Part shown: in pieces, positions 5,212-64,000 of the stretch
Position numbering within the stretch: the first letter of the stretch is position 1
Layout of the letters: each line of letters begins with the position of its first letter
Assembly: GCA_048937405.1 (NCBI GenBank)
Contig: JBHLNF010000005.1
Location: forward strand, 128,001-192,000
Reading direction: 5' to 3'
Origin: Promethearchaeota archaeon
GTDB taxonomy: Archaea; Asgardarchaeota; Lokiarchaeia; Sigyniarchaeales; SOKP01
DNA: 64,000 nucleotides
Program-made: the position numbers and the translations under genes
The notes under the pieces: generated by a model
The model's input: the letters and a program-made list of their open reading frames with translations, nothing else
Database searches by the model: none
Told to the model about the DNA's origin: nothing

Positions 5212-5214
5212 TTC

Positions 5215-6471: not shown

Positions 6472-6690
6472 ACTGTTATATTAATAAATTTCTTCCTTTA
6501 TCTTAGCAGAGATTTCATTAAAAAAATTAATCCCAATTTATAACTTTTAAAGTTTGCCAGAAAATCATTTTATTTAACAAAAAACATGGATTTTGAAATA
6601 TAAAAACTAATGATCTCAACTTATTTGTATCATAAAATATTTTTTTTAATGATATAGTATTGATTTTTTATTGATCAAATAAATATAAAG

Positions 6691-7809: not shown

Positions 7810-8163
7810 AATTGTTAAAGTCAATAATTAAGGAAATTAGAGTTTGATTAAAAATAATTAATGAACTATATTTATTAGTTAAACTTAATACTTTTAAGAA
7901 GTAAAATCTAATAAGGCTAATTTTCTAATAGTTCAATTTAGTATAATTGAAATCTCGTGTATCAAATAACTTTTTTAGGAGATGCATTATCTCTTAATAG
8001 AGAAAAATAAAGTAATGTTTACTTATAGAAAAATCTATGATAGGTGTTGAAAAAATATATTTAAATTTGTTTAAATAATATAAACAGATAAATATCTCGT
8101 ATATACTTTTTAAAACCGCTTTTTTAAGGAGAAAAGAATTTATCTGTAAAATATAGATAATTT

Positions 8164-37064: not shown

Positions 37065-38105
37065 GTGGACAATTTAAAAGTTTTTAAAGGAAAGGAAGAT
37101 ATAAAAGTAAAAATTAAACCAAGAATAGATCTCAAAAATAGAACAAAGCTTGAGACTGTCATTCCTCTTAAGGTTCCGTTTATTATTTTTGTTGATCCTT
37201 CTGATTTATGCAATTTCAAATGTAAATTTTGTCCCTCTGGAGATATATTTTTAATGAAAGAGGTCGGTAGAAGTCTGAATACCATGGATTTCGATCTTTA
37301 CAAAAAAATAATTGATGATATTTGTGAATTCGAAAAACAAATTAAAGTTTTAAGGCTTTATAAGGATGGAGAACCTTTACTCAACCCTAGATTCGTCGAT
37401 ATGGTTAAATATGCCAGAAAAAAAAAATGTGCTGAAAGGATTGACACAACCACTAATGCTTCGCTTCTTAATCCTAAATTAAATCTGGAAATTATTGAAG
37501 CTGGACTTGATCGTATAAATATCTCAATTGAGGGCGTCAATGAAAAGCAATATCTTGAATTTTCAAATTTTAGAATCAAATTTGATAAATTTGTGAATAA
37601 TATTCGACACTTCTATGAAAATAAAAACGAAAATTGTGAAGTCATCATAAAAATCAATGGTGATACAATATCAGATGAAGATAAATTAAAATTTTATGAG
37701 ATTTTTGGAGATATCGCCGATGGTGTATTTATTGAACATATTATGTCTTGTTGGCCTGAATTTGAACTTAAGGATGTTGAAGTCAACCAAGAATATGGCA
37801 TATATGGACAAAAAATAAAAGAAGTCATGGTATGCCCTTATGTTTTTTATTCATTTTCTATCAATTCTGATGGCTCAGTTAGTGCATGTTTTCTTGATTG
37901 GTCGAGAAAACTAATCATCGGTGATGCTAGAAAGGAAAGTGTTAAAGATATTTGGAACGGAGAAAAGCTTTTGAAATATCAAAAAATGTTTTTAAGAAAA
38001 GAAAGAAAACAACATTCTGTATGTAAGAATTGCGGTCAATTATCGCATGGATTACCTGATAACATTGATGATTATGCGGAAATATTATTAGGTCGTTTAA
38101 AATAA
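37065..38105 (+). CDS. Radical SAM protein with SPASM/twitch domain
   Basis: CNFKCKFC, GEPLL, TTN, CPYVF...C...IW...CKNC; GTG start preceded by GGGGAG. Confidence 0.88.
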   Translation: MDNLKVFKGKEDIKVKIKPRIDLKNRTKLETVIPLKVPFIIFVDPSDLCNFKCKFCPSGDIFLMKEVGRSLNTMDFDLYKKIIDDICEFEKQIKVLRLYKDGEPLLNPRFVDMVKYARKKKCAERIDTTTNASLLNPKLNLEIIEAGLDRINISIEGVNEKQYLEFSNFRIKFDKFVNNIRHFYENKNENCEVIIKINGDTISDEDKLKFYEIFGDIADGVFIEHIMSCWPEFELKDVEVNQEYGIYGQKIKEVMVCPYVFYSFSINSDGSVSACFLDWSRKLIIGDARKESVKDIWNGEKLLKYQKMFLRKERKQHSVCKNCGQLSHGLPDNIDDYAEILLGRLK

Positions 38106-38106
38106 C

Positions 38107-39291
38107 ATGATCCCTGAAAAAGATTTAGAATTAAAACCGTATTCTGCGGTAAAAATTGAAATTAATACTCGAGAGGAAGCCAACACAGTTTTAGAAAGAA
38201 TATTAATGTCAGAAATTGTACTTTCACCGCGAAAAATAGATAAACCAGTAATTCTTTATGGTGCTGGAAGTCTGGGTAAAATAGCAAAGGATTTTTTCAA
38301 TTATTTAGATCATAATTTTTTGTATTTTGTTGATAGAAATTCTGAAACTATAAAAATGGATACAAACTGGATTAATACAAAAATTATCCATCCAGATGAA
38401 GTAAAAGAAGATGATAAAAATAATTGTCTTCTTATAATTTGCATTGTTACAACTCCACTGATTTCTTTACTTGAAGATCTAAAAAATCAAGGGTGGAAGG
38501 ATATTTCTTTTTTCTATGATATATCTGAAGCCTACACTGATCAATATCCACTAACTAATGGCTGGTTTTTAAATAAACCAAATGAAAAAGAATTTAATGA
38601 CTATAAAAAAATATTTTTAATGTTAGATGATGTTTCACGTATGCATTATCTCCAATTTTTCGCTTGGCGGAGGTTAAGAATCGAACTCTTAATAAATAAT
38701 TTCCAATTAATGAATAATAGATATTTTATTCCAGAACTTATAAATTTATTAGATGAGAATGAAGTTTTTGTAGATTGTGGAGCTTTCAATGGCACTATTT
38801 CGAAAAAATTTATAGAAATAACTCATGGAAAATATAATCATATATATGCAATTGAAGCAGATATAAAAAATTATGAATTGCTTGAAAAATCTTTAAAATC
38901 CATTCCAAATGTGATAATCTTGAATTGTGCTATAGGAGATAAAGAAGGAATAGAGAATTTTTATCAAGGATTTGATTACGCTTCAAAAGTAAATAAAAAA
39001 GGAAATAGTACCGTCAAAATTACAACATTAGACAATTTAAAAATCCCTGCATCTTTCATTAAAATGCATTTGGAAGGTGGAGAACTCTCTGCATTAATAG
39101 GTGCCAAATCAACGATAAGGAAACATCGTCCAATTTTAGCAATAACAATTTATCATAATATCTTTGGAGTAAGAGAAATACCCCTTTTTTTAATGAGCTG
39201 TGTTAAAAATTATAAATATTTTATGAGATTGGATGCTTGGGCAGGAACAGGGGCAGTCTTTTATGCGATTCCAAAAGAAAGATATAATTAG
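38107..39291 (+). CDS. FkbM family methyltransferase with N-terminal Rossmann-like domain
   Basis: LYGAG; VDCGAFNG, IEAD, IKMHLEGGE, LAITIYH. Confidence 0.85.
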   Translation: MIPEKDLELKPYSAVKIEINTREEANTVLERILMSEIVLSPRKIDKPVILYGAGSLGKIAKDFFNYLDHNFLYFVDRNSETIKMDTNWINTKIIHPDEVKEDDKNNCLLIICIVTTPLISLLEDLKNQGWKDISFFYDISEAYTDQYPLTNGWFLNKPNEKEFNDYKKIFLMLDDVSRMHYLQFFAWRRLRIELLINNFQLMNNRYFIPELINLLDENEVFVDCGAFNGTISKKFIEITHGKYNHIYAIEADIKNYELLEKSLKSIPNVIILNCAIGDKEGIENFYQGFDYASKVNKKGNSTVKITTLDNLKIPASFIKMHLEGGELSALIGAKSTIRKHRPILAITIYHNIFGVREIPLFLMSCVKNYKYFMRLDAWAGTGAVFYAIPKERYN

Positions 39292-39296
39292 GAGGG
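39291..39296 (+). promoter_or_regulatory. Shine-Dalgarno (GGAGGG)
   Basis: 7 nt before ATG 39304, overlapping the upstream TAG. Confidence 0.6.
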
Positions 39297-39303
39297 TTTT
39301 ATA

Positions 39304-40044
39304 ATGAATAATGAAATTATTTTTGATTTAGGTTTCCATAATGGCGATGATACAAATTTTTATCTTAAAAAAGGATTTAAAGTTGTTGCACTTGAAGCAA
39401 ATCAAGAATTAGTAAAACGAGGATTAGAAAGATTTTACGATTATATTGATGAAAAACGCTTAATATTAATTAATAAAGCTATATCCGATAAAATAGGGAT
39501 GATTAATTTTTATATACATCCTAAAAAATCTGATTGGAGTAGTTGTGACCAGAAGATGGCAGAGAGTGATGGCACGAAATCAAAAGTAATCTCAGTAGAA
39601 TCAGTGTCGCTTATAGACCTATGTAAAGAATTTGGGACTCCTAGATATATTAAAGTTGATGTTGAGGGATGTGAAATAATGGTTGCTAAGCAACTTTTTA
39701 GCTTAAACGTTAAACCTCAATTTATTTCTTTTGAGACTTCAAAAACTAATTATGCTGGGATTTTCTCATGGTTGTATGTATCTGGGTATAAAAGATTTCA
39801 ATTAGTCAACCAATTAATTCATTTAAATCGCAAACCCGAAGACAATCAAAATCAAACTGAAGGAAAAAAGTTAGAGTTTCAATTTTCGAAATATTCATCA
39901 GGATTTTTTGGTAATGATTTGCCTAAAGATAAATGGCTTAGATATGATGAAGCTTTAACTCGTTATATAAAATATAAAGAATTAAAATATCTTGATAATC
40001 AGGAATTAGCATTAGGCTGGTTAGATGTGCATGCAAGCTTATAA
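39304..40044 (+). CDS. FkbM family methyltransferase
   Basis: IFDLGFHNGDDT, LEAN, YIKVDVEG, ISFE. Confidence 0.85.
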   Translation: MNNEIIFDLGFHNGDDTNFYLKKGFKVVALEANQELVKRGLERFYDYIDEKRLILINKAISDKIGMINFYIHPKKSDWSSCDQKMAESDGTKSKVISVESVSLIDLCKEFGTPRYIKVDVEGCEIMVAKQLFSLNVKPQFISFETSKTNYAGIFSWLYVSGYKRFQLVNQLIHLNRKPEDNQNQTEGKKLEFQFSKYSSGFFGNDLPKDKWLRYDEALTRYIKYKELKYLDNQELALGWLDVHASL

Positions 40045-47205: not shown

Positions 47206-49497
47206 ATGTCGTATTTTGTAGATGGATACTATACAATTTCTTTTTTTTTCTTTATTTTATATTTTGTTGTTATCTCGATTTTTGGGTATTCGATTTTTTC
47301 GATTTTAAATAAAGAGGGAGTTAAGAAGAATTTTACAATATCCTCTATTTTAAAATACTTTACATTAGGATTAATCACCCATTTGGTTTATTCTATGATT
47401 ATTGTTTCTTTTCAAATTTTTAACTTTTTCTCAGTATATTTACCTTTCATAATATGTGATGTGTGTTTTTTAACATTTTCAGTAAAGAAAAATTTTAAAT
47501 TGAAAATTCAAGATTTTGATTGGCGTAAGGTTTCCTTTTTATTTAAGCGAAATATAACGTCTTTTCTAATATTAATAATAATATTCTTTATGCAATATAC
47601 ATTAATGATGTTTTTTATTTGGAATCGCTTAGCTTTTCCCTCCAGTGATCCTTACGCTTGGTTTAGAAATGTATGGTTTGTTCATAATAACGGGGCAATA
47701 AATTATAATTCTATTGAAGGTTATCCTCCTGGTTATATATTATTTGGTGCAAGTATGATATCTCTGACAAATGATTATTATACAATTTATTTTTTTTGTA
47801 AATATTTACCAATATTTCTATCATCGATAAATTTACTCGTTTTATTCGCAATATCGAAAAATCTTTTTAAAAAAAAAATTTACGTGTTTTTTACTTTATC
47901 GATGTATTTAAGTGTAAATTACTTGTTCTATCGCTATGAAATGTTTATACCATCCACTTTAGCTACTACTTTAGGATTTTTATTTCTATTATTTTTAAGA
48001 GATGGTTCAATTGTGCAAAGGGTATTAAATGATCTAAGTCCAAGTAAAAATTCAGTAAATACTCTAAAAAAAAGTGAATTTTTATTTAGAGGCGCAATAA
48101 TTTCAGGAATTATTATGATACATGCGTTATATGGATTGTTTTATTTATGCTTTTACCTTCTTTATGAATTTTATTTGTTTATTGTATTATTAAAATCTAA
48201 TAGAAAAATCCTAAATTCAAAATCTTTTTTTACAATCAAATTTTTAAAATATTTCTCATCTTTCTTTTTAATTATTGTTTTTATGCTATTACCATGGTAT
48301 ATAGGAACATCAATATATTTGGATTATCCTTTATATCAAGCATTCACCTATTACATATCATCCCTTAATTCGTTTCAATCTCCATCTTTTATTAATAAAT
48401 TGGGAAGATTTTTTTATGAATTAGCAAGCTTTATTTTTGATAATACAGCATATAGAGATCTTGATAACTTTTTTCATAATGACATCATGTATTTTTTTAA
48501 CTTTCAGAATAGTCTTCATTTCTATATTAATACTATTGGAACTGGAATAATACTAATTGTTATCGGGATTTTCCTTCCATTTAAAAAATTCTTTAATTTA
48601 GATGAAAAGCAAAAAAATCTTGTAAGGTTCGTTAAATTTACATTTATTCTTTCGCTTTTATTATATTTAATAAATGACTTAATTAACTTCAAAAAAATAC
48701 CATTTACATCTAGATTAAATTATTTTCTTAGTGTTTATCTTAGGAGGGTATTTGAATTATTTGCTGGATATTGGGTCATATTATTTGTGTTAGCGTTTAA
48801 TTTTATTATTTTATATTTTTCAAGATTATTCCTCAAAACGAAATATATAAGGAAGATCACTAAAAATGATTCAATAGATAAGTTTTTCAGTATATCTTTT
48901 TTAAAAAAAAATTTTAAAAAAGTGAAATTTACCAGCAAAATTTTAAAAAATAATTCCGTTGCTCGTACTTTAAATTTCAAATTAATTAAAAGATCATTAA
49001 ATAGATTAAAATCGATTAAAAAGATTTCTAAAAAGAAATTTATTAGAAAAATTCTTGGAATCCCTGTTATAATCGTTGGAATTTTTATAAGTGGGTTCTA
49101 TTATACGATAAACTATAGAAGAATTTATTATCTAAACCATTTTTCTGATGATTATGCTAAAGCAGTTTTATTTGCTGGTAATTATTTTAATAAAAATCCA
49201 CTCGAAGAAGAGACCACGATTGTTGTTGAATTGGTAGAATCTAAAAAGTTTATCTACAAATTATTAGTATCTGATAATTTGAATAAAAGATATTACACTT
49301 TTTATGATTATAATGAAACTCATTTTCTAAATTATACAGACTATATTGAATTTAAAGAATATATAGAATTGATGAATGCTTCATATGTATTATTAAATGT
49401 TGTATTTACTGACGTGGATTTTCAATCTAATTTATATTCGGATATAAATCTTTTATATAGAAACAGGGGATTTTGGATTTTTGGGGAAATTCTATAA
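47206..49497 (+). CDS. Large multi-pass membrane protein, GT-C-like
   Basis: More than 12 hydrophobic segments; loop FPSSDPYAWF...GYPPGY; Lys-rich loop; C-terminal domain with NET/NYT/NAS sequons. Confidence 0.7.
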   Translation: MSYFVDGYYTISFFFFILYFVVISIFGYSIFSILNKEGVKKNFTISSILKYFTLGLITHLVYSMIIVSFQIFNFFSVYLPFIICDVCFLTFSVKKNFKLKIQDFDWRKVSFLFKRNITSFLILIIIFFMQYTLMMFFIWNRLAFPSSDPYAWFRNVWFVHNNGAINYNSIEGYPPGYILFGASMISLTNDYYTIYFFCKYLPIFLSSINLLVLFAISKNLFKKKIYVFFTLSMYLSVNYLFYRYEMFIPSTLATTLGFLFLLFLRDGSIVQRVLNDLSPSKNSVNTLKKSEFLFRGAIISGIIMIHALYGLFYLCFYLLYEFYLFIVLLKSNRKILNSKSFFTIKFLKYFSSFFLIIVFMLLPWYIGTSIYLDYPLYQAFTYYISSLNSFQSPSFINKLGRFFYELASFIFDNTAYRDLDNFFHNDIMYFFNFQNSLHFYINTIGTGIILIVIGIFLPFKKFFNLDEKQKNLVRFVKFTFILSLLLYLINDLINFKKIPFTSRLNYFLSVYLRRVFELFAGYWVILFVLAFNFIILYFSRLFLKTKYIRKITKNDSIDKFFSISFLKKNFKKVKFTSKILKNNSVARTLNFKLIKRSLNRLKSIKKISKKKFIRKILGIPVIIVGIFISGFYYTINYRRIYYLNHFSDDYAKAVLFAGNYFNKNPLEEETTIVVELVESKKFIYKLLVSDNLNKRYYTFYDYNETHFLNYTDYIEFKEYIELMNASYVLLNVVFTDVDFQSNLYSDINLLYRNRGFWIFGEIL

Positions 49498-54097: not shown

Positions 54098-55741
54098 TTA
54101 TTTTCTAGTAAATTTCTTAGTAAAGTTTAAACTTTTAAATAAAATTTTATCAAAGAATCTCTTTTTGTCTAAAAGAGACTGGAAATAAGATATATCAGAA
54201 GAAGTAACTGTTCTTAACAAGTAATTTGTTATAATAAAGAGAATAAAAAATGTAAAAATTGATAAGAAATCAAAATTCTTAAAGAGTGAAAATCCTAGAA
54301 GTAGAATAAACCCTTCAGCTGCATTTTTGAATATAAATTCCTTTAGAATTATTGTAATAGACAAAGGAATGAAAAATGTTATGTATTGAATTGCAATTTT
54401 TTTGATAATCAATTTAATTTTCCCAAATTTATATGTTGAATAGATTTGAATTATCATTGAAATAATATTTCCTATTATCAATCCATAGATAATTGCTCCT
54501 TCTACTCCAAAAAAGTAAAGCCCAATAAAAAATAATGGAATACTAATCGAAGTATAAATTATTCTTAAGATTAAGGTTAACTTTACTTTATGTTGAGCAT
54601 TTAAATGACTTTGTACAAATATCATGAGAATTTTGAAAATAGATGCAAGTACCATTAATCGAAGAAAATTTGAGTAAATTAACCGGTCTTCAAGAAATAC
54701 AAAATCTATAACAAATTCCACGCTAAAAAAAAGGACGCCTGACATAATTAGCAAAAGAAATAAGGTTACTCTATAAGTAATTCTAAAAATCTCTTCTATT
54801 TGCTTATAACTTTGTTTCGTGTTTAATGATGTAAAAGAGGTTAATAGTGGAAAATTAAAAGAATGAACAGCATAATCATTCAATTTTTGATAGTTTTGTG
54901 CAATATTATATCCCGTAACAACATCACTGGAGATTATATACCCAATTCCTTGAACTTGTGATTGGGTCCAAATTCTATCAATAAGATCATTGAGGCTCAT
55001 ATATCCACCATATTTAAATGTTTTAGAAACATCTTCCTTAAATGAATCTGTTTTGTTTCTCGTTAGTTTAATTTTATTAACCATTATAAAGACAAAAATA
55101 GAATTAAATATAAACGGAATTAAGCTTGAAATTAAAACTATCCATGCTGCAATTTCAATCTTAATTTCAATACTATTTATCCAAAAAATAATTAAAGGGA
55201 TAATATGTATCGTATTTTTTACTATTAAAAAAAGGAAATTATAATTAAACTTATTGAAACCACGATTAATGGCTTCTACTATATTATTCATATTATTTAT
55301 TAAAATACAAGGACTCAAAATAAAGAAAAGAGATACTAAAGTTTCTACAAGAAAATTAGAAAATAGAATAAAAATCAAAATACTGATAATAAAAATAGGA
55401 AATAGAAAAATCAGTTTTATTATAATAGTGTTTCGGATTAATGATTTCACCTTGGATCTTTCATTTAAGGCAAAATATCTTGGAATATAATAATTTAGAG
55501 TAAAATTGAGACCTGGAGGTAATAGGGATGTTATAGTTACTAAAATCATAATAATTGATGTGGCCATTATGAGAAGGCCCCAAATATCATCTACAAATAA
55601 ACGGGCTAAAAGAAAAGAATAGATAAAAGTGAAAAATAACGAGCTATAATTAAACAAAAATGAAAAGAAAGTATTTGTCGCCAAATTTCTGTATTCTGAA
55701 TTACCATTTGAATTTTTATTTTTATTATCTGAGTTTTCCAT
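54098..55741 (-). CDS. Oligosaccharide flippase (MOP superfamily, Wzx/AglR-like)
   Basis: 12-14 TM pattern; LATNTFFSF...LLARL, GL..T..YYIP, VTGYNIA, FGVEGA. Confidence 0.8.
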   Translation of the reverse strand: MENSDNKNKNSNGNSEYRNLATNTFFSFLFNYSSLFFTFIYSFLLARLFVDDIWGLLIMATSIIMILVTITSLLPPGLNFTLNYYIPRYFALNERSKVKSLIRNTIIIKLIFLFPIFIISILIFILFSNFLVETLVSLFFILSPCILINNMNNIVEAINRGFNKFNYNFLFLIVKNTIHIIPLIIFWINSIEIKIEIAAWIVLISSLIPFIFNSIFVFIMVNKIKLTRNKTDSFKEDVSKTFKYGGYMSLNDLIDRIWTQSQVQGIGYIISSDVVTGYNIAQNYQKLNDYAVHSFNFPLLTSFTSLNTKQSYKQIEEIFRITYRVTLFLLLIMSGVLFFSVEFVIDFVFLEDRLIYSNFLRLMVLASIFKILMIFVQSHLNAQHKVKLTLILRIIYTSISIPLFFIGLYFFGVEGAIIYGLIIGNIISMIIQIYSTYKFGKIKLIIKKIAIQYITFFIPLSITIILKEFIFKNAAEGFILLLGFSLFKNFDFLSIFTFFILFIITNYLLRTVTSSDISYFQSLLDKKRFFDKILFKSLNFTKKFTRK

Positions 55742-56060: not shown

Positions 56061-57227
56061 ATGAAATTAGATATATCAAAGAATCTGCATTCAAATCAAG
56101 AATTTAACAAAACTATGAAATTACAATATAAACCTAAAATTGGTATATTTACTAAACCAATCGACCAAGGTACAAGTGGTAGTGGGAGTTATTTAAGGCA
56201 GTTAGTGAATCAGATTCTAAAATTAAATAAAAAATTTAATATTGTTCTTATACATCATTCTAAAAATGATAATGAAGTGTATAAGAAAGCGAAAGATTTA
56301 ATTATTTCAAAAAATCCATTATTTGCTTATATAAAACTTAAAAAAGAAAATTTTGATCTACTTCATTATTATCCATTAACTATAACTTCTCCAATTTGGA
56401 TAAAAAAACCAAAAAAAGTTACTTCTGTTCATGGAGGTGGAGCAGCAGAGCTTTACTTTCCAAGTCAGTTTAGCTATATAAAACGGTTACATTCTAAATT
56501 AATTAAACCTAAATTTTTTAGGAAAATGGATTATATTTTTGTAGGATCTAATATTGGAAAAAAATTTCTTACACGTCAATATAATGTGAAAGAAGATAAA
56601 ATATTTTTTACTTATAGTGCGGTAAATGAAGATTTCAGAATTTATGAAAATAAACCTATCGAAATTAAGAAAAAATATGGAATTGAGGGGCCATTTATTT
56701 TCCATCTAAGTAAATTCTCAGAGAGAAAAAATCCATGGACAATAATGAAAGCTTTTCAAAAAGTAAAAATAATTAATGATAAGATTAAGTTAGTACTAGG
56801 AGGAAAAGGTTGGAAAAATATAAAAGTTATTGATTTTGCCAGAAAGAATGAAATTTTTAAAGATATCATATTTACTGGTTTTATTCCCCAAGAAGATCTT
56901 ATTCATCTTTTAAATTTAGCTGATGTCTTTGTTTTCCCCTCGTTTTTTGAAGGCTTTGGTATACCTAATTTGGAAGCAATGGCATGTGGTTGTCCAGTAA
57001 TTACTTCAAATGCCTTCGCAATACGAGAAATTGTAGGGGATGCCGCACTACTTTTAGAAGATAATTCAAATCCTGAAGAGTTAGCAAAAAAAATAATTTT
57101 ATTAATTAGTGATAAAAAATTACGAGATGAATTTATTAAAAAAGGTCTAGCAAGATTAAAATTATTCTCGTGGGAAAAAAGTGCCCAGACAGTATTAAAA
57201 ATATATGAAAGATGCTTGAACCTATAA
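56061..57227 (+). CDS. Glycosyltransferase family 4 (MtfB/WbaZ-like)
   Basis: ERKN, FTGFIP, FVFPSFFEGFGIPNLEAMACG, FSWEKSA. Confidence 0.92.
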   Translation: MKLDISKNLHSNQEFNKTMKLQYKPKIGIFTKPIDQGTSGSGSYLRQLVNQILKLNKKFNIVLIHHSKNDNEVYKKAKDLIISKNPLFAYIKLKKENFDLLHYYPLTITSPIWIKKPKKVTSVHGGGAAELYFPSQFSYIKRLHSKLIKPKFFRKMDYIFVGSNIGKKFLTRQYNVKEDKIFFTYSAVNEDFRIYENKPIEIKKKYGIEGPFIFHLSKFSERKNPWTIMKAFQKVKIINDKIKLVLGGKGWKNIKVIDFARKNEIFKDIIFTGFIPQEDLIHLLNLADVFVFPSFFEGFGIPNLEAMACGCPVITSNAFAIREIVGDAALLLEDNSNPEELAKKIILLISDKKLRDEFIKKGLARLKLFSWEKSAQTVLKIYERCLNL

Positions 57228-57491: not shown

Positions 57492-58310
57492 ATGCCGAGA
57501 GAAAGTTTTAAAGAATTTAGACAAATTATTCAAGGAACAAAACTTGAAAAACAAAGAAAAAAGAAAGATTGGTGGCATTGGATTTACAGATTTTTCTCAA
57601 GATATATTACTTGGGTTCTTGTAAAAACCCCTATTTCTGCTAATATTATTACAATTACAGGAATATTGATTGGGTTAATAGGATTATTCTTAATAGGAAT
57701 AGGAAATAATTTTTTAATAATTTTTGGATTTATTTTATTATATATTTATTACTTATCTGATGAAGTTGATGGTGAAGTCGCTAGATATAAGAAACAAACA
57801 TCTTCACGAGGTATATATTATGATGAAATCGGACATTTATTCTTTCAAGGATGGTTTTTCTTTTCTTTTGGATACAGTATTTATAGGCTCAATTTTGAGT
57901 TTATGTATATTTTTCTTGCATTTATCGCAACTTTTTTCCTAATAGGAATTAGAACAGTTAGGAAAATATCCATCATAGCATTTGCTAAAGGTAATATTAA
58001 AAAAGGGAATGAAATTAAAACAAGAGGAGACGAAGAAAAATCCTCAAAAAAATCTTTTATTAAATTAGTTAAAAGTATATCTATCAATCTAGTAAATGGT
58101 TTTAGTCATACACACATGATAACAACAATGTTTTTTGTTGGATTCTTATTATATATCTATTTTGAAATTATTTGGGTAATAGAACTTTTGATGATTAGCT
58201 ACGTTCTATTTCTACTTTTTGTATTTCTAACATTTATGATTTTAAAAGCTAGAACTATTGAAAAAGATGCTCGAAAACATTATGAAAAAAAATTCTTGGA
58301 AAATCCATAA
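57492..58310 (+). CDS. CDP-alcohol phosphotransferase family membrane protein
   Basis: SANIIT...DEVDGEVARYKKQTSSRGIYYDEIGH matches D-x2-DG-x2-AR-x8-G-x3-D-x3-D with the last D replaced by H. Confidence 0.88.
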   Translation: MPRESFKEFRQIIQGTKLEKQRKKKDWWHWIYRFFSRYITWVLVKTPISANIITITGILIGLIGLFLIGIGNNFLIIFGFILLYIYYLSDEVDGEVARYKKQTSSRGIYYDEIGHLFFQGWFFFSFGYSIYRLNFEFMYIFLAFIATFFLIGIRTVRKISIIAFAKGNIKKGNEIKTRGDEEKSSKKSFIKLVKSISINLVNGFSHTHMITTMFFVGFLLYIYFEIIWVIELLMISYVLFLLFVFLTFMILKARTIEKDARKHYEKKFLENP

Positions 58311-58343
58311 TAAGTTTGAATTAAAAATTACGAAGGCATTTTA

Positions 58344-59849
58344 ATGAATATTTTTTGGATTGTTACTGACTCAATTTGCAATTATGAAAGGTCTGATTTA
58401 CATGGTTTACTTCCGACCTATAATAAATTAAAAAATGAAAATGAAGGTTTTTATTTTGAAGATTGTATCTCTCAATTTCCTTCAACAAATTTATCACTTT
58501 TATCATTTCTAACAGGTAGATTTCCTTATTATATATTCCCTGACTACTATCGTTCAATTAAGAATTTGCCCAGTTTGAAATATAAGAATTTTATTGCACC
58601 ATTGAAACAAGAGAATTACAGAGTTCAATCAATTTTTTTTGGTAGAGAACAAGCTGTAATTTTAAAAGAAATTCTCAATCCATTTTATGAAACAGATATG
58701 TATAAAGGAGATCACTGGCTGGATGCTAAGGAAGTATATCAATATTTTATTCAGAAAGTTGAAAAATTTCAGCCTGATGAAAAAAACTTTTTATTCACGT
58801 TTTTTAGACCAAGTGGCCCTCAAACAGATAAATATTTAAGGAAAATAATAGAATATTTAAAAAAGAATAATTATTGGGAAAATTCAGTAATAATCATCAA
58901 TTCGGATCATGGATATTATGATAAGAATTTATATAAGAAGACTAAATTACTCCATTTTGATGATATTCATCAATCATCGATGCAACCTGTTTTATTTATT
59001 AAATTACCAACGAGTTTGACTTTATCTCAGCCCAAGATAATAGAAAATAGGACATATTTAATTGATCTGATGGAGACGATTCTGGATTATCTAAATATTA
59101 AGATTTCTCATGAGAGGGATTCAATTTCTTTCAAAGATTTAATTGAAAAGGATATTGATGTGAACAATCAGAGAATAATCCGAGGAGATTGCTATTTAAT
59201 GTTCCAAGCAATTAAAAGAACTATGATAATAAAATCTAATTGGAAATTAGTAAATAATAATGGAATATTTTCATTATACAATTTATCTGAAGATCACTTA
59301 GAAAGAAAAGATATAAAAAACCAATATAATAAGATTTACAATGAACTATATCAATTCTATTTAATGACAGAATTGAAGGCATATAAGGTATTTGAATCAC
59401 TACTCTTTTCTCTTTATGATAAGAGTATATTACCAAAATTAAAATTATCAAAAATTTTTATTCCTAAACAATTTCCTCCTCAACTTGTAAGATTTCTCAA
59501 AGAAAATCTAGCGAAAAATAACATCATTATAAATAGTCAAGATCTAAATGAACTTCAATTAAACGATGATCAAAAACTTACTACTATACTCTTTTATAAC
59601 AGACTAACTGGAATTAGATTAAGCAAATTAATAAGAAAATATAAAGAACAAACCAAGCGATTCATAATTTTGGACACAGAATTAAATGAAGTTTCTGATC
59701 AATTAAATCAAACTGGGTACTTAAAATTCGTACTCAGATCAATTTGGGTCCGGAGAAAACTCTTATTTCAAAGATGGAAGGAGATTGTTGTTTGGATTTT
59801 ATATTTCCCATTATATTTCAACAAGCATGCAAGAAAATATTACAAATAA
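58344..59849 (+). CDS. Alkaline phosphatase/sulfatase superfamily protein (Thr at nucleophile position; possible phospho(no)transferase or hydrolase)
   Basis: NIFWIVTDS, FPSTNLSLLSFLTGRFP, NSDHG, IDLMETILD, WKL, LYNL..D..E; no CxPxR. Confidence 0.75.
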   Translation: MNIFWIVTDSICNYERSDLHGLLPTYNKLKNENEGFYFEDCISQFPSTNLSLLSFLTGRFPYYIFPDYYRSIKNLPSLKYKNFIAPLKQENYRVQSIFFGREQAVILKEILNPFYETDMYKGDHWLDAKEVYQYFIQKVEKFQPDEKNFLFTFFRPSGPQTDKYLRKIIEYLKKNNYWENSVIIINSDHGYYDKNLYKKTKLLHFDDIHQSSMQPVLFIKLPTSLTLSQPKIIENRTYLIDLMETILDYLNIKISHERDSISFKDLIEKDIDVNNQRIIRGDCYLMFQAIKRTMIIKSNWKLVNNNGIFSLYNLSEDHLERKDIKNQYNKIYNELYQFYLMTELKAYKVFESLLFSLYDKSILPKLKLSKIFIPKQFPPQLVRFLKENLAKNNIIINSQDLNELQLNDDQKLTTILFYNRLTGIRLSKLIRKYKEQTKRFIILDTELNEVSDQLNQTGYLKFVLRSIWVRRKLLFQRWKEIVVWILYFPLYFNKHARKYYK

Positions 59850-60007
59850 CTAATTCTTGGTTTTTCTCGGGAACTTATTGAATTATAAAAAATTAATTTT
59901 AACTTTCTTAAGACTTTTTTTAGAGAAATTAATGAGAAAGAAAAGATAATTAAAGTTAGGATAATAATAGTTTAGATATCCAATAAAAGGATGAATAAAG
60001 TAACTCC

Positions 60008-60088
60008 TTACCTATATAAGACTTCATAAGTTTCGAGATAACAAAAAGAATATATAAATATCAAATCTCTAAAAGTTTATATAGGTAA
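60008..60088. repeat. Perfect 12-bp inverted repeat TTACCTATATAA / TTATATAGGTAA (twin outward-facing TATA elements)
   Basis: Arms at 60008-60019 and 60077-60088; similarity extends inward with gaps (ACTT/AAGT, TTCGAGAT/ATCTCTAA). Confidence 0.65.
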
Positions 60089-60115
60089 CCGTACTTGTAA
60101 GGTTATTAAACTTTT
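60071..60115 (+). promoter_or_regulatory. BRE-TATA (AAAAG-TTTATATA) followed by palindromic operator candidate TAACCGTAC-TT-GTAAGGTTA
   Basis: TATA 60076-60083; palindrome 60086-60105 (8/9 arm match); outer 9-bp arms AAAAGTTTA (60071-79) and TAAACTTTT (60107-15). Confidence 0.55.
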
Positions 60116-60126
60116 CATGTAATTAT

Positions 60127-61050
60127 ATGCCGAAACAAAAATTTTCTGATCCTGAAGAAATTAAGAAGATTTATGAGAGTGTTAAAAAAATCGGATATAA
60201 AAAAACATCTGAGAAATTTAATGAGCATATTTCACTTCTAGAGCGAATTGTAAGAAGATATGAAGAAAACAAGGAAGTAAAAAAGATGAAAGTAATTATT
60301 ATAGCCGCGGGTCCAAGTACAAGATTAAGACCCTTAACTGAATATAAGCCAAAATGTTTATTAGAAATTGAAGAAAAAAGCATTCTTGAACGTATAATAG
60401 AAATTTTTAAATATTTTGGTCTTGATAACTTTGTAATTATTCGAGGATATCAAAAAGAAAAAATTGATTTACCAAATATTTCCTACTATGATAATGATGA
60501 TTACTATAACAATAATATTCTCGAATCATTGTTTTACGCTGAGGAGGCAATGAAAGATGGATTTATTTTCACCTATTCAGATATATTGTACAGTAAAAAT
60601 GTCGTTAAAAAATTATTAGATTCCCCTCATGATTTTAGTTTTATCGTAGATACTGATTGGAGGAAAAGATATGAAGGACGCACAAAACATCCTACAGACG
60701 AAGCTGAATTAGTTATTGTAGAAGATGGGAAAATAAAACATCTATCAAAATTTTATAATCCAGATATTGCTTACGGAGAATTCATAGGACTTGGTAAATT
60801 TACAAAAAAAGCGGCAGAAATTTTAAGCCGTAACTATAATCGTGCAAAATACAATAAAACTTGTAAATTTGAGGGAAGATTTCATGATGCAACGACTATG
60901 CAAAAAGCATACTTAACAGATATGCTTGAAGAACTTATTTTTCGAGGATATTCAATGCATTCGGTTGACATTCAAGGAGAATGGGTAGAAATGGATACCG
61001 AGGAAGATTATGAATATGCTAAAGAATTAATAAAAAATGGAAAAATATAA
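60127..61050 (+). CDS. LicC/PntC-like phosphocholine/phosphonate cytidylyltransferase with N-terminal HTH-like extension
   Basis: From Met54: KVIIIAAGPSTRLRPLT..KPKCLL, YSDILY, GEFIGL, WVEMDT.ED. Residues 1-53 include GYKKTSEKFNEHISLLERIVRRYEE (HTH-like). Confidence 0.82.
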   Translation: MPKQKFSDPEEIKKIYESVKKIGYKKTSEKFNEHISLLERIVRRYEENKEVKKMKVIIIAAGPSTRLRPLTEYKPKCLLEIEEKSILERIIEIFKYFGLDNFVIIRGYQKEKIDLPNISYYDNDDYYNNNILESLFYAEEAMKDGFIFTYSDILYSKNVVKKLLDSPHDFSFIVDTDWRKRYEGRTKHPTDEAELVIVEDGKIKHLSKFYNPDIAYGEFIGLGKFTKKAAEILSRNYNRAKYNKTCKFEGRFHDATTMQKAYLTDMLEELIFRGYSMHSVDIQGEWVEMDTEEDYEYAKELIKNGKI

Positions 61051-61067
61051 AATTAGGTTAAAAAAAT

Positions 61068-62399
61068 ATGAGCGAAGTTGAAATTACTAATAATAAAAAT
61101 GAAATTAAAAAAGCATTTGATACTGGTTATAAACTAGCCAATTGGCGAATGCGAATATTTTTTACTGGTTGGATTACTTACATGATTTACTATATAGGAC
61201 GAAATAATTATGGAGTAGCAAAACCATTTATCATGAATGAATTTGGATATACTGCTACTTTAATGGGAGTTGTGAGTTCTATCTTTCTTATTGCATATGC
61301 ATTTGGACAATTCTTTAATGGTTTTTTAGGTGACAAAATCGGTGCCAGACGCTTTATTACATTAGGATTAATTGTATCATCAGTTTTAAATTTGATGATG
61401 GGAGTTGCATTTGACTTTATTTGGGTAGCTTTTCTTTTTTGGGGTTTAAATGGCTATTTTCAATCAATGGGATGGGCACCTTCAGTGAAAACAATTGCTA
61501 ATTGGCATCCTGCTGAAGAAAGAGGTAAATGGTCTAGTAGACTTGCCACTTCATATCTACTTGGGGGAGTTCTATCATGGGGTATCGCCATTCTTATTAC
61601 TGATACATTTAGTCTAGATTGGCGTTATTCTTTTATTATTCCAGGAATTATAATGTTTCTCATGACGTTTCATTTTTATTTCCGTATTAGAAATGCCCCT
61701 GAAGAGGTTGGTTTACCAACTTTGGAAGAAGAATGTGAAGGTGTAATAGTAATGGGTGACTGCCGTCCAGATGAATTTGTAGGCTTTAAATATATTTTTA
61801 ATACAGTAATTAAAACTAAAACTGTTCTTTTTGCAGCTTTTGGATTATTTTGCCTAAATATAGTTCGATATGGGTTAACTGATTGGCTCCCATATTTATT
61901 AAGTCCTGAAATAACAGGTGCAGAAGAATTTGGTACTTGGAAATCAATTTTTTACCCTATTGGAGGTACATTTGGTGTCATTGTTGCTGCATGGATTTCA
62001 AATAAATATCTTAAAAAAAGAAGAATACCTGTAGTTTGTGCTCTTTTTCTGACTTTAGGATTAACATTATTCATATATACTTTCCTACCTCCACTTGATA
62101 TGGTTTTTGGAATTCCTGTATTGATGTTAATTGGTTTCTTAAATTTTGGACCTCATGCACTTTTAGTTTCTACAATACCCATGGAATTTGGGACAAGAAA
62201 AGCATCATCTGCAGCTACAGGATTTATTGATGGTGTTGGTTATATAGGAGCCGCTATTACAACTTTTTCCTCAGGAGCTCTTATTGATGCTGCTGGTTCT
62301 GGAGCTGCTTTTTTACTCTGGATTATAGTTGCACTAATAGGAGGTTTAGTCCTATTATTAGATTGGAAAAGTATACCAGAAAGAAGAGAATATGTTTAA
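61068..62399 (+). CDS. MFS organophosphate:Pi antiporter family (GlpT/UhpT/PgtP-like)
   Basis: WITYMIYYIGRNN, G.LGDK.G.R, QSMGWAPS, W....ERG, PEEVGLP, VRYG..DW.P, A.GFID..GY.G. Confidence 0.88.
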   Translation: MSEVEITNNKNEIKKAFDTGYKLANWRMRIFFTGWITYMIYYIGRNNYGVAKPFIMNEFGYTATLMGVVSSIFLIAYAFGQFFNGFLGDKIGARRFITLGLIVSSVLNLMMGVAFDFIWVAFLFWGLNGYFQSMGWAPSVKTIANWHPAEERGKWSSRLATSYLLGGVLSWGIAILITDTFSLDWRYSFIIPGIIMFLMTFHFYFRIRNAPEEVGLPTLEEECEGVIVMGDCRPDEFVGFKYIFNTVIKTKTVLFAAFGLFCLNIVRYGLTDWLPYLLSPEITGAEEFGTWKSIFYPIGGTFGVIVAAWISNKYLKKRRIPVVCALFLTLGLTLFIYTFLPPLDMVFGIPVLMLIGFLNFGPHALLVSTIPMEFGTRKASSAATGFIDGVGYIGAAITTFSSGALIDAAGSGAAFLLWIIVALIGGLVLLLDWKSIPERREYV

Positions 62400-62567
62400 A
62401 CAAAAATATATATTTTTTTTTATTAATTATTTTATAGATAATTCTAATTAATCTCGATAAATTTATTTAGTTAAATTATAAAGAATTTATTGATAATGGA
62501 TTCAATTTTTATTCAAAAATAACTATATATTATTAGATCATGCTTAATCAAATATTTAAATCAAACT

Positions 62568-62574
62568 AAGGTGA
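62568..62574 (+). promoter_or_regulatory. Shine-Dalgarno-like AAGGTGA
   Basis: 5 nt before ATG 62580; matches part of the GGAGGTGA consensus. Confidence 0.45.
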
Positions 62575-62579
62575 CATGG

Positions 62580-64000
62580 ATGGAATTAAAATTGAGAAGA
62601 AGGATCTTACCTAATGAAAGAAGGAGTATTTTGAAAAATTTACTTAATAAAAAGGGTTTTGCTAGAATTCTCGAAACCCATAATGGTTTGAGTGCCATAA
62701 TTGCTAATAATATAAAGGAAATAAATAAGGGTGAAATTCTTGAATTTAATGGATTTTGGGTGAGTAGTTTTACGGATAGCGCTGCTAAAGGATATCCTGA
62801 TATTGAAATTATTGGTATGGAGTCACGATATGAAACGATTCGTCAAATTCTAAATAATACAAATAAACCTATAATAATAGATGGCGATACTGGAGGGGAA
62901 GCAGCAAATTTCGAATATTTTGTAAGATCTTTAGAAGACATGGGAGTTTCAATGGTTATTATTGAAGATAAAAAGTTTCCAAAAAGAAATAGTTTGGAAA
63001 GTGGTACAATCCAAGATCAAGAAGATCCAGAGATTTTCTCAATAAAAATCAAAAGAGGCAAAGAGGTTCAAATATCAAAAGATTTCATGATTGTTGCTAG
63101 AATCGAAAGTTTAATTTCAGGATTAGGGTTAAAGGATGCTCTCTTTAGAGCAAAGAAGTATTTATTAGCAGGAGCAGATGGAATTATGATTCATTCCAAA
63201 AGTATTGATCCTAAAGAAATATTAGAATTTGCTGTGGAGTATAATAAATTATCAAAAGAATTAGGTTTTAGGAAACCACTGGTCTGTGTTCCTACAACGT
63301 ATAATACCGTTTCAGAGGAAAATTTACAAGATTATGGTTTTAATATTGTTATATATGCTAATCATCTCTTAAGAGCTGCTCATAAGGCTATGAAGGAAAC
63401 AGCTTCAATAATTTTAAGAAATAAAAGAGCATTTGAAGCAGAAACTATGTGCAGCCCTGTAAAATCAGTTTTTAGAGATGTTGGGTTTCTAGATGTTAAA
63501 GAAAAGGATATGAAATATATTAAAGGTATTACAAAAGTTATTATTCCTGCAGCTGGTGAAGATCCTGAATTTGAAATTCCTAAAGCAATGACGACTTTAA
63601 AGGGTAAAACAATTCTACAACGACAAATAGAAACATTGAAGAATTGTGGAATTACTGATATTATTGTAATAAGAGGATTTAAAAAAGAGGATATTAATGT
63701 TGATGGCATAAGATACATTGATAATGATGAATACAACAAGTACCATATTTTACATTCATTATTTAAAGCAGAAAATGAAATGCAAGGAGGTTTCATATTT
63801 ATTTATTCAGATATTTTATTCAATGAGCAAATAATCAAAAATTTGTTAATGGTAAAAGGAGATATTATTTTAGTTTTGGATAATTCTTATACTTATCATA
63901 AACACAAGATTGATAAAAACCTTGATTTAATTTTAACAAAAAATAAACCAAGTGAACAGTCTAGAGATTTATACCAAAAAAAGAATGAAATTATACGAAT
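62580..64000 (+). CDS. pepM: Phosphoenolpyruvate mutase fused to C-terminal nucleotidyltransferase-like domain (truncated by window edge)
   Basis: Not in ORF track. Manual translation MELKLRRR...ETHNGLS...GFWVSS..DS..KG.PD.E...IIDGDTGG...EDKKFPKRNS (EDK-x5-NS, 62964-62993)...ARIES...GADGIMIHS...VPTTY...IYANHLLRA, then KVIIPAAG...PK...RGFKKE...YSDILF; open to the window end. Confidence 0.93.
   Translation, partial: MELKLRRRILPNERRSILKNLLNKKGFARILETHNGLSAIIANNIKEINKGEILEFNGFWVSSFTDSAAKGYPDIEIIGMESRYETIRQILNNTNKPIIIDGDTGGEAANFEYFVRSLEDMGVSMVIIEDKKFPKRNSLESGTIQDQEDPEIFSIKIKRGKEVQISKDFMIVARIESLISGLGLKDALFRAKKYLLAGADGIMIHSKSIDPKEILEFAVEYNKLSKELGFRKPLVCVPTTYNTVSEENLQDYGFNIVIYANHLLRAAHKAMKETASIILRNKRAFEAETMCSPVKSVFRDVGFLDVKEKDMKYIKGITKVIIPAAGEDPEFEIPKAMTTLKGKTILQRQIETLKNCGITDIIVIRGFKKEDINVDGIRYIDNDEYNKYHILHSLFKAENEMQGGFIFIYSDILFNEQIIKNLLMVKGDIILVLDNSYTYHKHKIDKNLDLILTKNKPSEQSRDLYQKKNEIIR

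Follow-up and report, generated by a model that had tools for sequence, protein, structure and literature searches.

A predicted 2-hydroxyethylphosphonate cassette in a Lokiarchaeial surface-glycan locus

Introduction

A 64,000-nt stretch of archaeal DNA (here called the window) ends in a row of co-oriented genes, the last of which resembles a PEP mutase (PepM). This raises the question of which phosphonate, if any, is made here and where it goes. An earlier note proposed a C-P pathway attached to a surface-glycan island of a possibly Asgard archaeon, with CMP-activated 2-aminoethylphosphonate (AEP) as the starting point of a relay to a surface glycan. Taxonomic assignment bears out the Asgard origin, as contig and genome are both Lokiarchaeial, and all five genes on which the proposal was built (CDP-alcohol phosphotransferase, alkaline-phosphatase-superfamily (AP) enzyme, LicC-like nucleotidyltransferase, antiporter-like transporter and PepM) were found where they had been placed. 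The glycan island was also recovered and is large: the PepM locus is embedded between genes for a Wzx flippase and a GT4 glycosyltransferase on one side and further glycan genes on the other. The features, including those downstream of the window (L004), are:

54098..55741, minus strand: Wzx-type polysaccharide flippase, 547 aa, bounding the variable locus on the left (PF01943 Polysacc_synt, 55.6 bits)
56061..57227, plus strand: GT4 glycosyltransferase, 388 aa (PF00534, 139 bits)
57492..58310, plus strand: CDP-alcohol phosphotransferase, Asgard subfamily, 272 aa, about 6 TM (PF01066)
58344..59849, plus strand: AP-superfamily (Sulfatase/AP) enzyme, 501 aa (PF00884/PF01663)
60127..61050, plus strand: LicC/PntC-like nucleotidyltransferase NTP1 (NTP_transf_3), 307-aa ORF (PF12804)
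61068..62399, plus strand: MFS transporter with organophosphate:phosphate-antiporter-like matches, 443 aa (PF07690, 164.6 bits)
62571..64000, plus strand, running past the window: PEP mutase (PEP_mutase) fused to a C-terminal PF12804 nucleotidyltransferase domain (NTP2)
L004:2305-3441, downstream: Fe-alcohol dehydrogenase (Fe-ADH), phosphonoacetaldehyde-reductase type
L004:3438-4154, downstream: nucleotidyltransferase NTP3
L004:4171-5316, downstream: phosphonopyruvate decarboxylase, Ppd (TIGR03297)
L004:5460-6431, downstream: NAD epimerase
L004:6446-8731, downstream: 761-aa polytopic membrane protein

From PEP to CMP-HEP

The PepM reading frame extends to L004:2280 (window-equivalent 64280) and likely starts at the ATG at 62580 given in the earlier note, since this start fits the 566 aa length of database homologues. 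The extension and the fused nucleotidyltransferase domain had escaped the earlier note, as had the lack of a TM segment or signal peptide in the AP enzyme. In profile searches it reaches 339.9 bits on TIGR02320 (cutoff 319.55), as opposed to 158 bits for phosphonopyruvate hydrolase and 98 bits for methylisocitrate lyase. The motif EDKKFPKRNS lies at residue 132 (nt 62964-62993), and the protein aligns over its full length with the solved PEP mutases PDB 5unc and 1m1b. At the level of sequence, the last reading frame of the window is confirmed as a true PEP mutase, as first proposed. The canonical GxGxRLxPLT loop is missing from its fused NTP2 domain across 115 homologues, an observation which sits uneasily with our preferred explanation.

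The predicted C-P pathway proved real and complete once the adjoining DNA was included, as the earlier note had advised; Ppd and Fe-ADH follow there. PepM and Ppd are each single-copy in the genome and both exceed curated equivalog cutoffs (Ppd: 419.4 bits on TIGR03297, cutoff 312.5). The Fe-ADH gene lies between them; the protein scores 197.7 on the phosphonate-specific equivalog, below the cutoff of 423.7, which counts against the preferred explanation, and its role is therefore assigned from context. No AEP transaminase was found in the cluster or genome, the best class-V aminotransferase being encoded on another contig and reaching 169 bits against a cutoff of 361. Together with the presence of Fe-ADH, this indicates that the product of the cassette should be 2-hydroxyethylphosphonate (HEP) and CMP-HEP rather than the AEP and CMP-AEP named in the earlier note. 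Neither phosphonatase nor C-P lyase was found in the genome, as has been reported for phosphonate producers (PMC8931226).

We give roughly even chances to the explanation that the region is a HEP biosynthesis and cytidylyl-activation cassette, a single exchangeable unit within the surface-glycan locus of a Lokiarchaeial genome, and that it places HEP-phosphonyl groups onto a glycan or glycolipid. With families assigned from sequence, the PepM domain would convert PEP to phosphonopyruvate, Ppd would yield phosphonoacetaldehyde and Fe-ADH would reduce the latter to HEP, which a LicC/PntC-like nucleotidyltransferase would then activate to CMP-HEP. All three nucleotidyltransferase domains are nearest to LicC and the phosphonate cytidylyltransferase PntC; NTP3 is the conserved candidate for this step, with NTP1 and the fused NTP2 as paralogues. 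The phosphonyl group of CMP-HEP would most probably pass, at the cytoplasmic face of the membrane, to a hydroxyl of a glycan or glycolipid precursor anchored in it. This transfer could be catalysed by the His-variant CDP-alcohol phosphotransferase in loci that have one, by the cytoplasmic Thr-type AP enzyme, or by both, and the neighbouring Wzx is proposed to flip the product outward.

The glycan locus across the genus

Throughout this genus, the cassette is part of the glycan locus. The 100% complete genome G204 has no PepM and carries Wzx, CDP-alcohol phosphotransferase, GT4, AP, NTP1 and MFS, directly followed by the 761-aa gene; G215 has the AP gene in the same locus, with neither PepM nor a match to the CDP-alcohol phosphotransferase. 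A divergent Wzx adjoins the CDP-alcohol phosphotransferase/AP block in G204, G215, L037 and L039, and GT4 travels with the AP gene in locus forms 1, 3 and 4. Within the genus, the CDP-alcohol phosphotransferase gene is present in 5 PepM-less genomes and missing from five or six that have PepM, and it occurs, like NTP1, MFS and AP, in complete genomes without PepM. Accordingly, the cassette is not bound to any one transferase, which speaks against the preferred explanation. The CDP-alcohol phosphotransferase, NTP1 and MFS form a separable module and the PepM block a swap-in cassette.

The NTP1 catalytic core begins at M54, and its best PDB matches are LicC 1jyk (60 bits) and PntC 6pd1. The transporter reaches 222.6 bits on TIGR00881 (PgtP subfamily), 190 on UhpC and 178 on GlpT, all under cutoffs; the organophosphate/phosphate exchangers of this group are importers. 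The MFS and NTP1 pair, which recurs in G204 and in ‘Ca. Lokiarchaeum ossiferum’, looks like an import-and-activate side module able to work without endogenous C-P synthesis.

These arrangements lend some weight to an unlikely alternative, in which the CDP-alcohol phosphotransferase, AP, NTP1 and MFS genes have no functional link to the phosphonate cassette: glycerol-3-phosphate or another organophosphate would be imported, activated as a CDP-alcohol and used to place a teichoic-acid-like, phosphodiester-linked group on the glycan, with the PepM block merely adjacent. The PepM-less loci fit this view, as do the transporter's best matches and two additional TagF-like CDP-glycerol glycerophosphotransferases in the distant orthologue loci L039/L040. 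However, NTP1 is the closest paralogue of the PepM-fused domain (35% identical over about 250 aa), and in L. ossiferum, which belongs to a different family, both NTP1 and MFS adjoin the PepM core although glycan genes are absent. Signature-divergent CDP-alcohol phosphotransferases also adjoin PepM in a Bathyarchaeia locus beside GT2 genes, and PepM-less strains could equally import exogenous phosphonate.

The CDP-alcohol phosphotransferase

The CDP-alcohol phosphotransferase matches PF01066 at 25.1 bits (GA 22), and all 51 detected relatives with a source name are Asgard. Among PDB entries, AF2299 is nearest to it in sequence as well as in fold (TM 0.54). With AF2299, IPCT-DIPPS and the PIP synthases (PDB 4o6m, 4mnd, 5d91) it shares the fold and six-helix core, part of the signature (D1xxD2GxxAR...G...D3) and the cytidine-binding N/T motif (PMC4634129). 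The signature reads D90xxD93GxxAR-x8-G107xxxD111xxxH115 (nt 57759-57836). All three Asp residues that bind metal are kept, as are the cytidine-binding N51 and T54 (motif roles: PMC4634129), whereas the catalytic Asp (D4) of known family members is replaced by His115; neither this His nor N51 or T54 varies among 16 orthologues. D4 is the proposed catalytic base, and a D-to-N mutant is nearly inactive (PMC4634129); its replacement here is a further observation which runs against the preferred explanation.

The enzyme might alternatively be a lipid head-group synthase joining a CDP-archaeol donor to HEP as acceptor, which would give an archaeal lipid ending in a non-hydrolysable phosphonate. HEP is similar to glycerol-3-phosphate and inositol-1-phosphate, which serve as phospho-alcohol acceptors, the compact architecture of roughly six helices is that of family members with small polar acceptors (PMC4634129), and the best NCBIfam match is archaetidylinositol-phosphate synthase. 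We consider this improbable, as that match (47.8 bits) is far under the AIPS cutoff of 180, the gene lies among Wzx and glycosyltransferase rather than lipid genes and is missing from several PepM-bearing relatives, and the three nucleotidyltransferases of the cluster argue for CMP activation of the phosphonate itself (PMC6697681).

The core in other Asgard archaea

The four-gene core PepM/Fe-ADH/NTP3/Ppd stands together in 18-19 of the 20 Asgard PepM loci examined, from at least four families. These include the cultured L. ossiferum and a contig from an MK-D1 expression run, and a related cassette is very probably present in this second cultured Asgard strain (MK-D1). With relatives in cultured Asgard archaea, the prediction is directly testable. 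The L. ossiferum PepM has a different fusion partner, a PF01467 cytidylyltransferase; the same type of fusion occurs in Fom1, where the fused domain produces CMP-HEP (PMC6697681). The genes flanking the core are housekeeping rather than glycan genes in both the L. ossiferum locus and the contig from the MK-D1 run, a setting which does not match the preferred explanation.

This setting would suit a cassette making a free small-molecule phosphonate (antibiotic-like, a signalling compound or a solute) exported by the MFS protein, as would the linkage of a transporter to the core in two families and the identity of the core with the first fosfomycin steps (Fom1/Fom2/FomC logic; PMC6697681). Such a fate is nevertheless very unlikely: no late tailoring enzyme (Fom3-type B12 radical SAM, epoxidase, HEPD/MpnS, ATP-grasp or NRPS) was found adjoining the core, the cassette keeps to the glycan locus in this genus, and the transporter resembles importers.

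The AP-superfamily enzyme

The AP enzyme carries Thr48 at the nucleophile position and the metal ligands D9, D188 and H189; the ligands are invariant and T48 is near-invariant. LtaS and EptA have a Thr nucleophile with Asp and Asp-His metal ligands, a residue set which we take the window enzyme to share. T48 also aligns with the sulfatase Cys/Ser(fGly) position, the P-x-R part of that motif being absent. Comparison of the structural model (pLDDT 81.5) with known folds gave TM values of about 0.5 for sulfatases, PMH and YejM, the best overall fold scores being those of S1 sulfatases and phosphonate monoester hydrolases. While the AP fold is common to LtaS and EptA (MCR-1), these have an N-terminal membrane domain, whereas the window enzyme carries long helices and an additional alpha/beta domain at its C-terminus. 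Its sequence shows neither a TM segment nor a signal peptide, and it is therefore considered cytoplasmic. Its gene is a fixed part of the glycan locus with or without PepM, found in 17/17 genomes of the genus with PepM and 5 without.

The relay first proposed, from CMP-AEP via an archaeol phosphonolipid made by the CDP-alcohol phosphotransferase to LtaS/EptA-like head-group transfer onto glycan outside the membrane, stands only partly and as a whole is hardly tenable: its families are all present and co-oriented and the AP residue set fits, but AEP and the external step fall away with the lack of an AEP transaminase in the genome, the cytoplasmic AP protein and its persistence in PepM-less loci, one of which (G215) also has no CDP-alcohol phosphotransferase match.

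Comparison with known phosphonate systems

The locus is less novel than first claimed. In NCBI, dozens of proteins from Asgard MAGs already bear the name PEP mutase, the most frequent PepM architecture is the fusion to PF12804 (PMC6697681), and clusters of the HEP branch account for 8.5% of known PepM neighbourhoods (PMC8942020). Only 12 archaeal neighbourhoods appear in the inventory of Li & Horsman (RefSeq June 2020; PMC8942020).

The bacterial phosphonyl-tailoring (Pnt) clusters with PepM-nucleotidyltransferase fusions and PntC, such as Treponema denticola Tde1415 and Atopobium rimae Ari1348 (Rice et al., 2019; PMC6697681), share with the window the PepM-PF12804 fusion, further LicC-like nucleotidyltransferases one or two genes away, a neighbourhood of cell-surface glycan genes and the logic of CMP activation. 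In contrast to the archaeal cluster, they make AEP with an AEP transaminase and use LicD-like transferases, where the window cluster has Fe-ADH of the HEP branch and, instead of LicD, the His-variant CDP-alcohol phosphotransferase and the cytoplasmic Thr-type AP enzyme.

The predicted route itself is that of Fom1/Fom2/FomC in Streptomyces wedmorensis, from PEP via phosphonopyruvate, phosphonoacetaldehyde and HEP to CMP-HEP (PMC6697681; PMC8942020), with the same set of PepM, Ppd, Fe-ADH and a PepM-fused cytidylyltransferase. The fused domain is an N-terminal PF01467 in Fom1, an arrangement also found in L. ossiferum, and a C-terminal PF12804 in the window. Unlike the fosfomycin cluster, the window cluster is missing Fom3, FomD and Fom4 genes and has a glycan rather than an antibiotic context. 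HEP-branch (PhpC-type) PepM neighbourhoods likewise combine Ppd with Fe-ADH (Li & Horsman, 2022; PMC8942020). HEP is present in marine high-molecular-weight organic matter (PMC8931226), and HEP phosphonoglycans share the glycan fate predicted here. What is new about the window cluster is its lineage; clusters of this kind are already known.

The phosphonate cluster

Five open reading frames on the same strand lie at the end of the window, all belonging to the families to which an earlier note on this DNA had assigned them.

Genes at the end of the window
57492-58310, +, CDP-alcohol phosphotransferase (CDP-OH; PF01066)
58344-59849, +, alkaline-phosphatase/sulfatase-superfamily protein (AP)
60127-61050, +, LicC-like nucleotidyltransferase NTP1 (PF12804)
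61068-62399, +, MFS transporter (best matches GlpT/UhpC/PgtP)
62571-64000, continuing past the window end to L004:2280, +, PEP mutase (PepM; TIGR02320)

The last of these scores 339.9 bits against TIGR02320 (curated equivalog cutoff 319.55), compared with 158 bits for phosphonopyruvate hydrolase and 98 bits for methylisocitrate lyase (PrpB). The EDKxxxxxNS motif is present as EDKKFPKRNS (residue 132), residues E129 to S138 are invariant in an alignment of 10 diverse homologues, and solved PEP mutases align with the protein over its full length. Judged by equivalog scores, motif and context, the predicted product is a PEP mutase, as the earlier note had proposed; its C-terminal PF12804 nucleotidyltransferase domain (NTP2), which makes it a 569-aa fusion, had gone unnoticed there.

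The 19 kb past the window were fetched (locus L004) and annotated. The PepM-nucleotidyltransferase fusion is followed by an iron-containing alcohol dehydrogenase (Fe-ADH), a further nucleotidyltransferase (NTP3, 238 aa), phosphonopyruvate decarboxylase (Ppd), an NAD-dependent epimerase and a 761-aa membrane protein. Ppd, three genes downstream of PepM, scores 419.4 bits against TIGR03297 (cutoff 312.5) and is one of the driving enzymes for which the earlier note had advised inspecting this adjoining DNA. With both scores above curated cutoffs, PepM and Ppd would lead from PEP through phosphonopyruvate (PnPy) to phosphonoacetaldehyde (PnAA). The cluster is real, complete, Asgard and of a well-known kind. 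A split ComD/ComE-like (sulfopyruvate/phosphonopyruvate-decarboxylase-like) pair, whose scores with the Ppd model are 106 and 156 bits, lies elsewhere on the contig (C18:19586-20583), outside the window and apart from this cluster.

Neighborhoods of PepM have been classed into 2-hydroxyethylphosphonate (HEP) and 2-aminoethylphosphonate (AEP) branches (Li and Horsman; PMC8942020). The earlier note had favored AEP, yet profile searches found no AEP transaminase (PhnW/AepZ) in the cluster or the whole genome, where the best class-V aminotransferase reaches 169 bits (cutoff 360.8) and lies on a different contig (C16). Because this enzyme is absent and Fe-ADH lies between PepM and Ppd, the cluster is assigned to the HEP branch. 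Fe-ADH (PF00465 and PF25137) is encoded inside the PepM/Ppd cluster and kept beside these genes in 18 of 20 Asgard loci. Its score of 197.7 on the phosphonate-specific equivalog TIGR03405 is below the cutoff of 423.7, so that a PnAA reductase role rests on context, and a lactaldehyde reductase model scores it about equally (203.7).

Nucleotidyltransferases and transporter

NTP1, NTP2 and NTP3 are all predicted to adopt the LicC/PntC-type fold (PF12804/PF00483): the best PDB matches of both NTP1 and NTP3 include the structures 1jyk and 6pd1, and for NTP2 1jyk ranks first. NTP1 and NTP2 share 35% identity. The canonical nucleotide loop GxGxRLxPLT occurs in NTP1 and NTP3 and is missing from NTP2, where residues ~320-345 of the fusion (L004:571-2280) instead carry IIPAAG-x-D-x-x-F-x-IPK, conserved across 115 homologues. 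The fused domain may therefore have altered nucleotide binding or no catalysis.

The MFS protein falls below the organophosphate:Pi antiporter cutoffs (TIGR00881, 222.6 vs 407.75; GlpT, 178 vs 632), and its resemblance to GlpT/UhpT/PgtP antiporters is one of family level only. Neither phosphonatase nor PhnJ was found in the source genome, and for this reason less weight is given to the transporter as a phosphorus-scavenging importer. Such an absence is reported to be typical of phosphonate producers (Acker et al.; PMC8931226).

Distribution among Asgard archaea

The source genome comprises 4.47 Mb in 29 contigs at ~25% GC, and the window covers positions 128001-192000 of its contig C18. Its closest PepM proteins (66-90% identical) are annotated by NCBI as "phosphoenolpyruvate mutase" in Lokiarchaeota/Promethearchaeota MAGs, and the nearest named species genomes are likewise Promethearchaeota (68-91%), confirming the assignment of the contig to Asgard archaea. 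The nearest PepMs outside this group (50-61%) come from Nitrospinaceae, a Deltaproteobacteria MAG, Thermoplasmata, Methanosarcinales, Bathyarchaeia, Falkowbacteria and Dehalococcoidia. Distribution is patchy, with TIGR02320 matches in 43/399 genomes of the phylum, 30/133 of the family and 16/53 of the genus.

A tblastn comparison of the cluster proteins with 20 Asgard PepM neighborhoods showed that 18-19 of these, distant families included, have the full set of PepM, Fe-ADH, NTP3 and Ppd. Among the genomes with this core is that of the cultured 'Ca. Lokiarchaeum ossiferum' (GenBank CP104013), in which the order is MFS - NTP1, then PF01467-PepM - Ppd - Fe-ADH - NTP3. A second closed genome, G143, shares this core. 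A protein identical to its NTP3 is encoded on a contig of 15 kb (L135) assembled from run DRR199588, and this contig carries a cluster of CyTase-PepM, Ppd, Fe-ADH and NTP3 at 4188-8570; an exact look-up of the G143 PepM matched no record. A small UbiE-like methyltransferase gene follows NTP3 on this contig. The run is named as gene-expression data in the MK-D1 paper, and the core on its contig hints at transcription, with DNA carry-over possible. The runs listed as holding the window stretch are sediment metagenomes from two studies, one of them perhaps its source, with no RNA sequencing runs among them.

A mosaic locus in a glycan island

A large glycan island fills the remainder of the window. 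Its genes specify enzymes of nucleotide-sugar metabolism, a radical SAM-SPASM enzyme, a C-methyltransferase, methyltransferases of the FkbM and other types, glycosyltransferases of families GT2 and GT4, an ABC-2 exporter and NeuB. The last is part of a 634-aa fusion (26479-28383, -) of a NeuB-type nonulosonic-acid synthase (SAF domain) with a xylose-isomerase-like TIM-barrel (AP_endonuc_2). The radical SAM-SPASM gene is followed by two FkbM-type methyltransferase genes (37065-40044, +). A 763-aa ORF (47206-49497, +) has no Pfam match even at E<=5. The sole TagF-like CDP-glycerol glycerophosphotransferase of the genome (PF04464, 238 bits; C18:75324-76412) shares the contig with the island, 52 kb upstream of the window.

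Within the genus, the region between the flippase gene Wzx and the gene of the 761-aa protein, at one and the same chromosomal site, takes four forms.

Forms of the locus between Wzx and the 761-aa gene
Form 1 (window): GT4 - CDP-OH - AP - NTP1 - MFS - PepM·NTP2 - FeADH - NTP3 - Ppd - epimerase
Form 2 (G178, G182, G209): AP, then the PepM block directly
Form 3 (G204, 100% complete): CDP-OH - GT4 - AP - NTP1 - MFS, no C-P genes
Form 4 (G215): GT4 - sulfotransferase - AP - epimerase

In form 3, the gap between the MFS and 761-aa genes is only 177 bp. The sulfotransferase beside AP in the PepM-less form 4 belongs to PF00685 (L138, G215:C87, 11053-11967, -); its presence in that slot suggests that strains exchange one kind of anionic glycan modification for another at this locus. 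When presence was cross-tabulated across the genus, the AP gene was found in 17/17 genomes with PepM and in five lacking it (G195, G202, G204, G213 and G215); the CDP-OH gene was found in 11 genomes with PepM and 5 lacking it, and was unmatched in five with PepM and in G207, where a contig end cuts the gene. The cross-tabulation and the four forms together identify the AP enzyme as a backbone of the glycan locus, and CDP-OH/NTP1/MFS and the PepM block as separable cassettes. More distant orthologous loci also contain two genes of the TagF-like CDP-glycerol glycerophosphotransferase type and another CDP-OH gene.

The 761-aa gene (L004:6446-8731, +), conserved at the right border, encodes a polytopic membrane protein with no Pfam or NCBIfam match even at E<=5; in the ESM Atlas it meets only DUF6541/DUF2206-type clusters of unnamed membrane proteins. 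Paralogy with the 763-aa ORF was considered and rejected, the two being unrelated. Relatives also keep, at the right-hand end of this locus, the gene of a 612-aa protein (L004:10207-12045, +) in which long extensions flank a small-GTPase domain of Arf/Roc/Ras type (residues 112-258).

Candidate transferases

The CDP-OH protein scores 25.1 bits against PF01066 (GA 22), and a Foldseek search with its structural model gave significant E-values with CDP-alcohol phosphotransferases alone (AF2299, TM 0.54). The family signature D1xxD2G1xxAR...G2xxxD3xxxD4 comprises eight residues, of which D4 is treated as the catalytic base and a D-to-N mutant is nearly dead (Clarke et al.; PMC4634129). Seven of the eight absolutely conserved residues are kept (D1, D2, G, AR, G, D3), as are the cytidine-binding N51/T54; the complete signature is absent, the D4 position being occupied by His115, invariant in 16 orthologues. 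All detectable relatives with a named source are Asgard (51/51). A Bathyarchaeia MAG locus combines a PepM·NTase fusion, Fe-ADH, NTP3, split Ppd and GT2 genes with two divergently oriented CDP-OH genes (L065 11243-13162), whose signatures read G-x3-E-x3-E and G-x3-E-x3-N as opposed to the usual G-x3-D-x3-D. As this locus joins both, PepM is tied to signature-divergent CDP-OH enzymes outside Asgard archaea too.

The AP protein contains no hydrophobic segment (Kyte-Doolittle, window 19, threshold 1.6), and its first beta-strand begins at residue 3. These two features indicate a cytoplasmic protein and hence argue against LtaS/EptA-like action outside the membrane, the role which the earlier note had given to a protein that in fact lacks an N-terminal multi-TM anchor. 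D9, D188 and H189 are invariant and T48 is near-invariant, a set which we take to be that of Thr-type phosphotransferases; in the alignment, T48 falls at the sulfatase formylglycine position. The protein thus has a putative AP catalytic domain with a Thr nucleophile, and model comparison indicates a generic sulfatase/PMH/YejM-like AP fold. A formylglycine (S1) sulfatase was rejected, since T-N-L-S-L replaces the C/S-x-P-x-R motif. The family is essentially confined to Asgard archaea; an AP profile gave 0 matches in five genomes from outside Asgard archaea that encode close PepMs, in an uninformative search that had no positive control.

Proposed pathway and alternatives

Given their families and genomic context, Fe-ADH would reduce PnAA to HEP and a LicC/PntC-like nucleotidyltransferase would activate HEP as CMP-HEP. 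Much more tentatively, the CDP-OH enzyme with its variant His, the AP enzyme or both might transfer the HEP-phosphonyl group, at the cytoplasmic face, onto a glycan or glycolipid anchored in the membrane, and Wzx might then flip the decorated product.

Several alternatives have to be weighed. The upstream module could form an independent phosphodiester decoration, a reading that suits the C-P-gene-free G204. The CDP-OH enzyme could instead join CDP-archaeol and HEP as a lipid head-group synthase. A free small-molecule phosphonate could also be the product. The AEP-type relay of the earlier note, with an LtaS-type step, is the reading weakened most by the data.

A broader proposal, which we consider unlikely as a whole, is that Asgard archaea, cultured strains included, coat part of their unusual envelope with HEP through a transfer chemistry uncharacterised in any organism, by a His-for-Asp CDP-OH subfamily with CMP-phosphonate donors and/or a cytoplasmic Thr-nucleophile AP phosphonyl transferase, at a locus that swaps phosphonate, phosphodiester and sulfate modules. 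Even a teichoic-acid-like poly(phosphonate) is conceivable as product, because HEP keeps a free hydroxyl.

Comparison with known systems

Models of eukaryote origin discuss syntrophic contacts that Asgard archaea are believed to make through their cell surfaces, and to our knowledge almost nothing is known of the chemistry of these surfaces. New here are the modular picture of the locus, two concrete, lineage-specific candidates for phosphonate transfer and an easily testable prediction, phosphonate production by cultured Asgard archaea. The locus also offers one chromosomal site with natural "knock-in/knock-out" variants. Sediment Asgard archaea may also contribute to the HEP pool of marine organic matter.

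In the literature consulted on phosphonates, no enzyme moving a CMP-activated phosphonate to a cell-surface acceptor was found described, and the steps after C-P bond formation have been called "enigmatic" (Rice et al., 2019; PMC6697681). The string "phosphon" is absent from the main text of the L. ossiferum and MK-D1 papers. What was found on phosphonates in Asgard archaea is limited to phnWX assignments on the catabolic side and a tally, made with antiSMASH, of "six archaeal phyla" that have phosphonate clusters, with no dedicated description. The novelty had been overstated in the earlier note, as the cluster is of a known kind and PepM annotations already exist at NCBI for Asgard MAGs. PF12804 fusions occur on ~33% of PepMs (PMC6697681), and the HEP branch accounts for 8.5% of known neighborhoods (PMC8942020). 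In cultured 'Ca. L. ossiferum', the PF01467-PepM fusion has the architecture of Fom1; the fused cytidylyltransferase of Fom1 makes CMP-HEP (PMC6697681), and this likeness backs the proposed CMP-HEP step.
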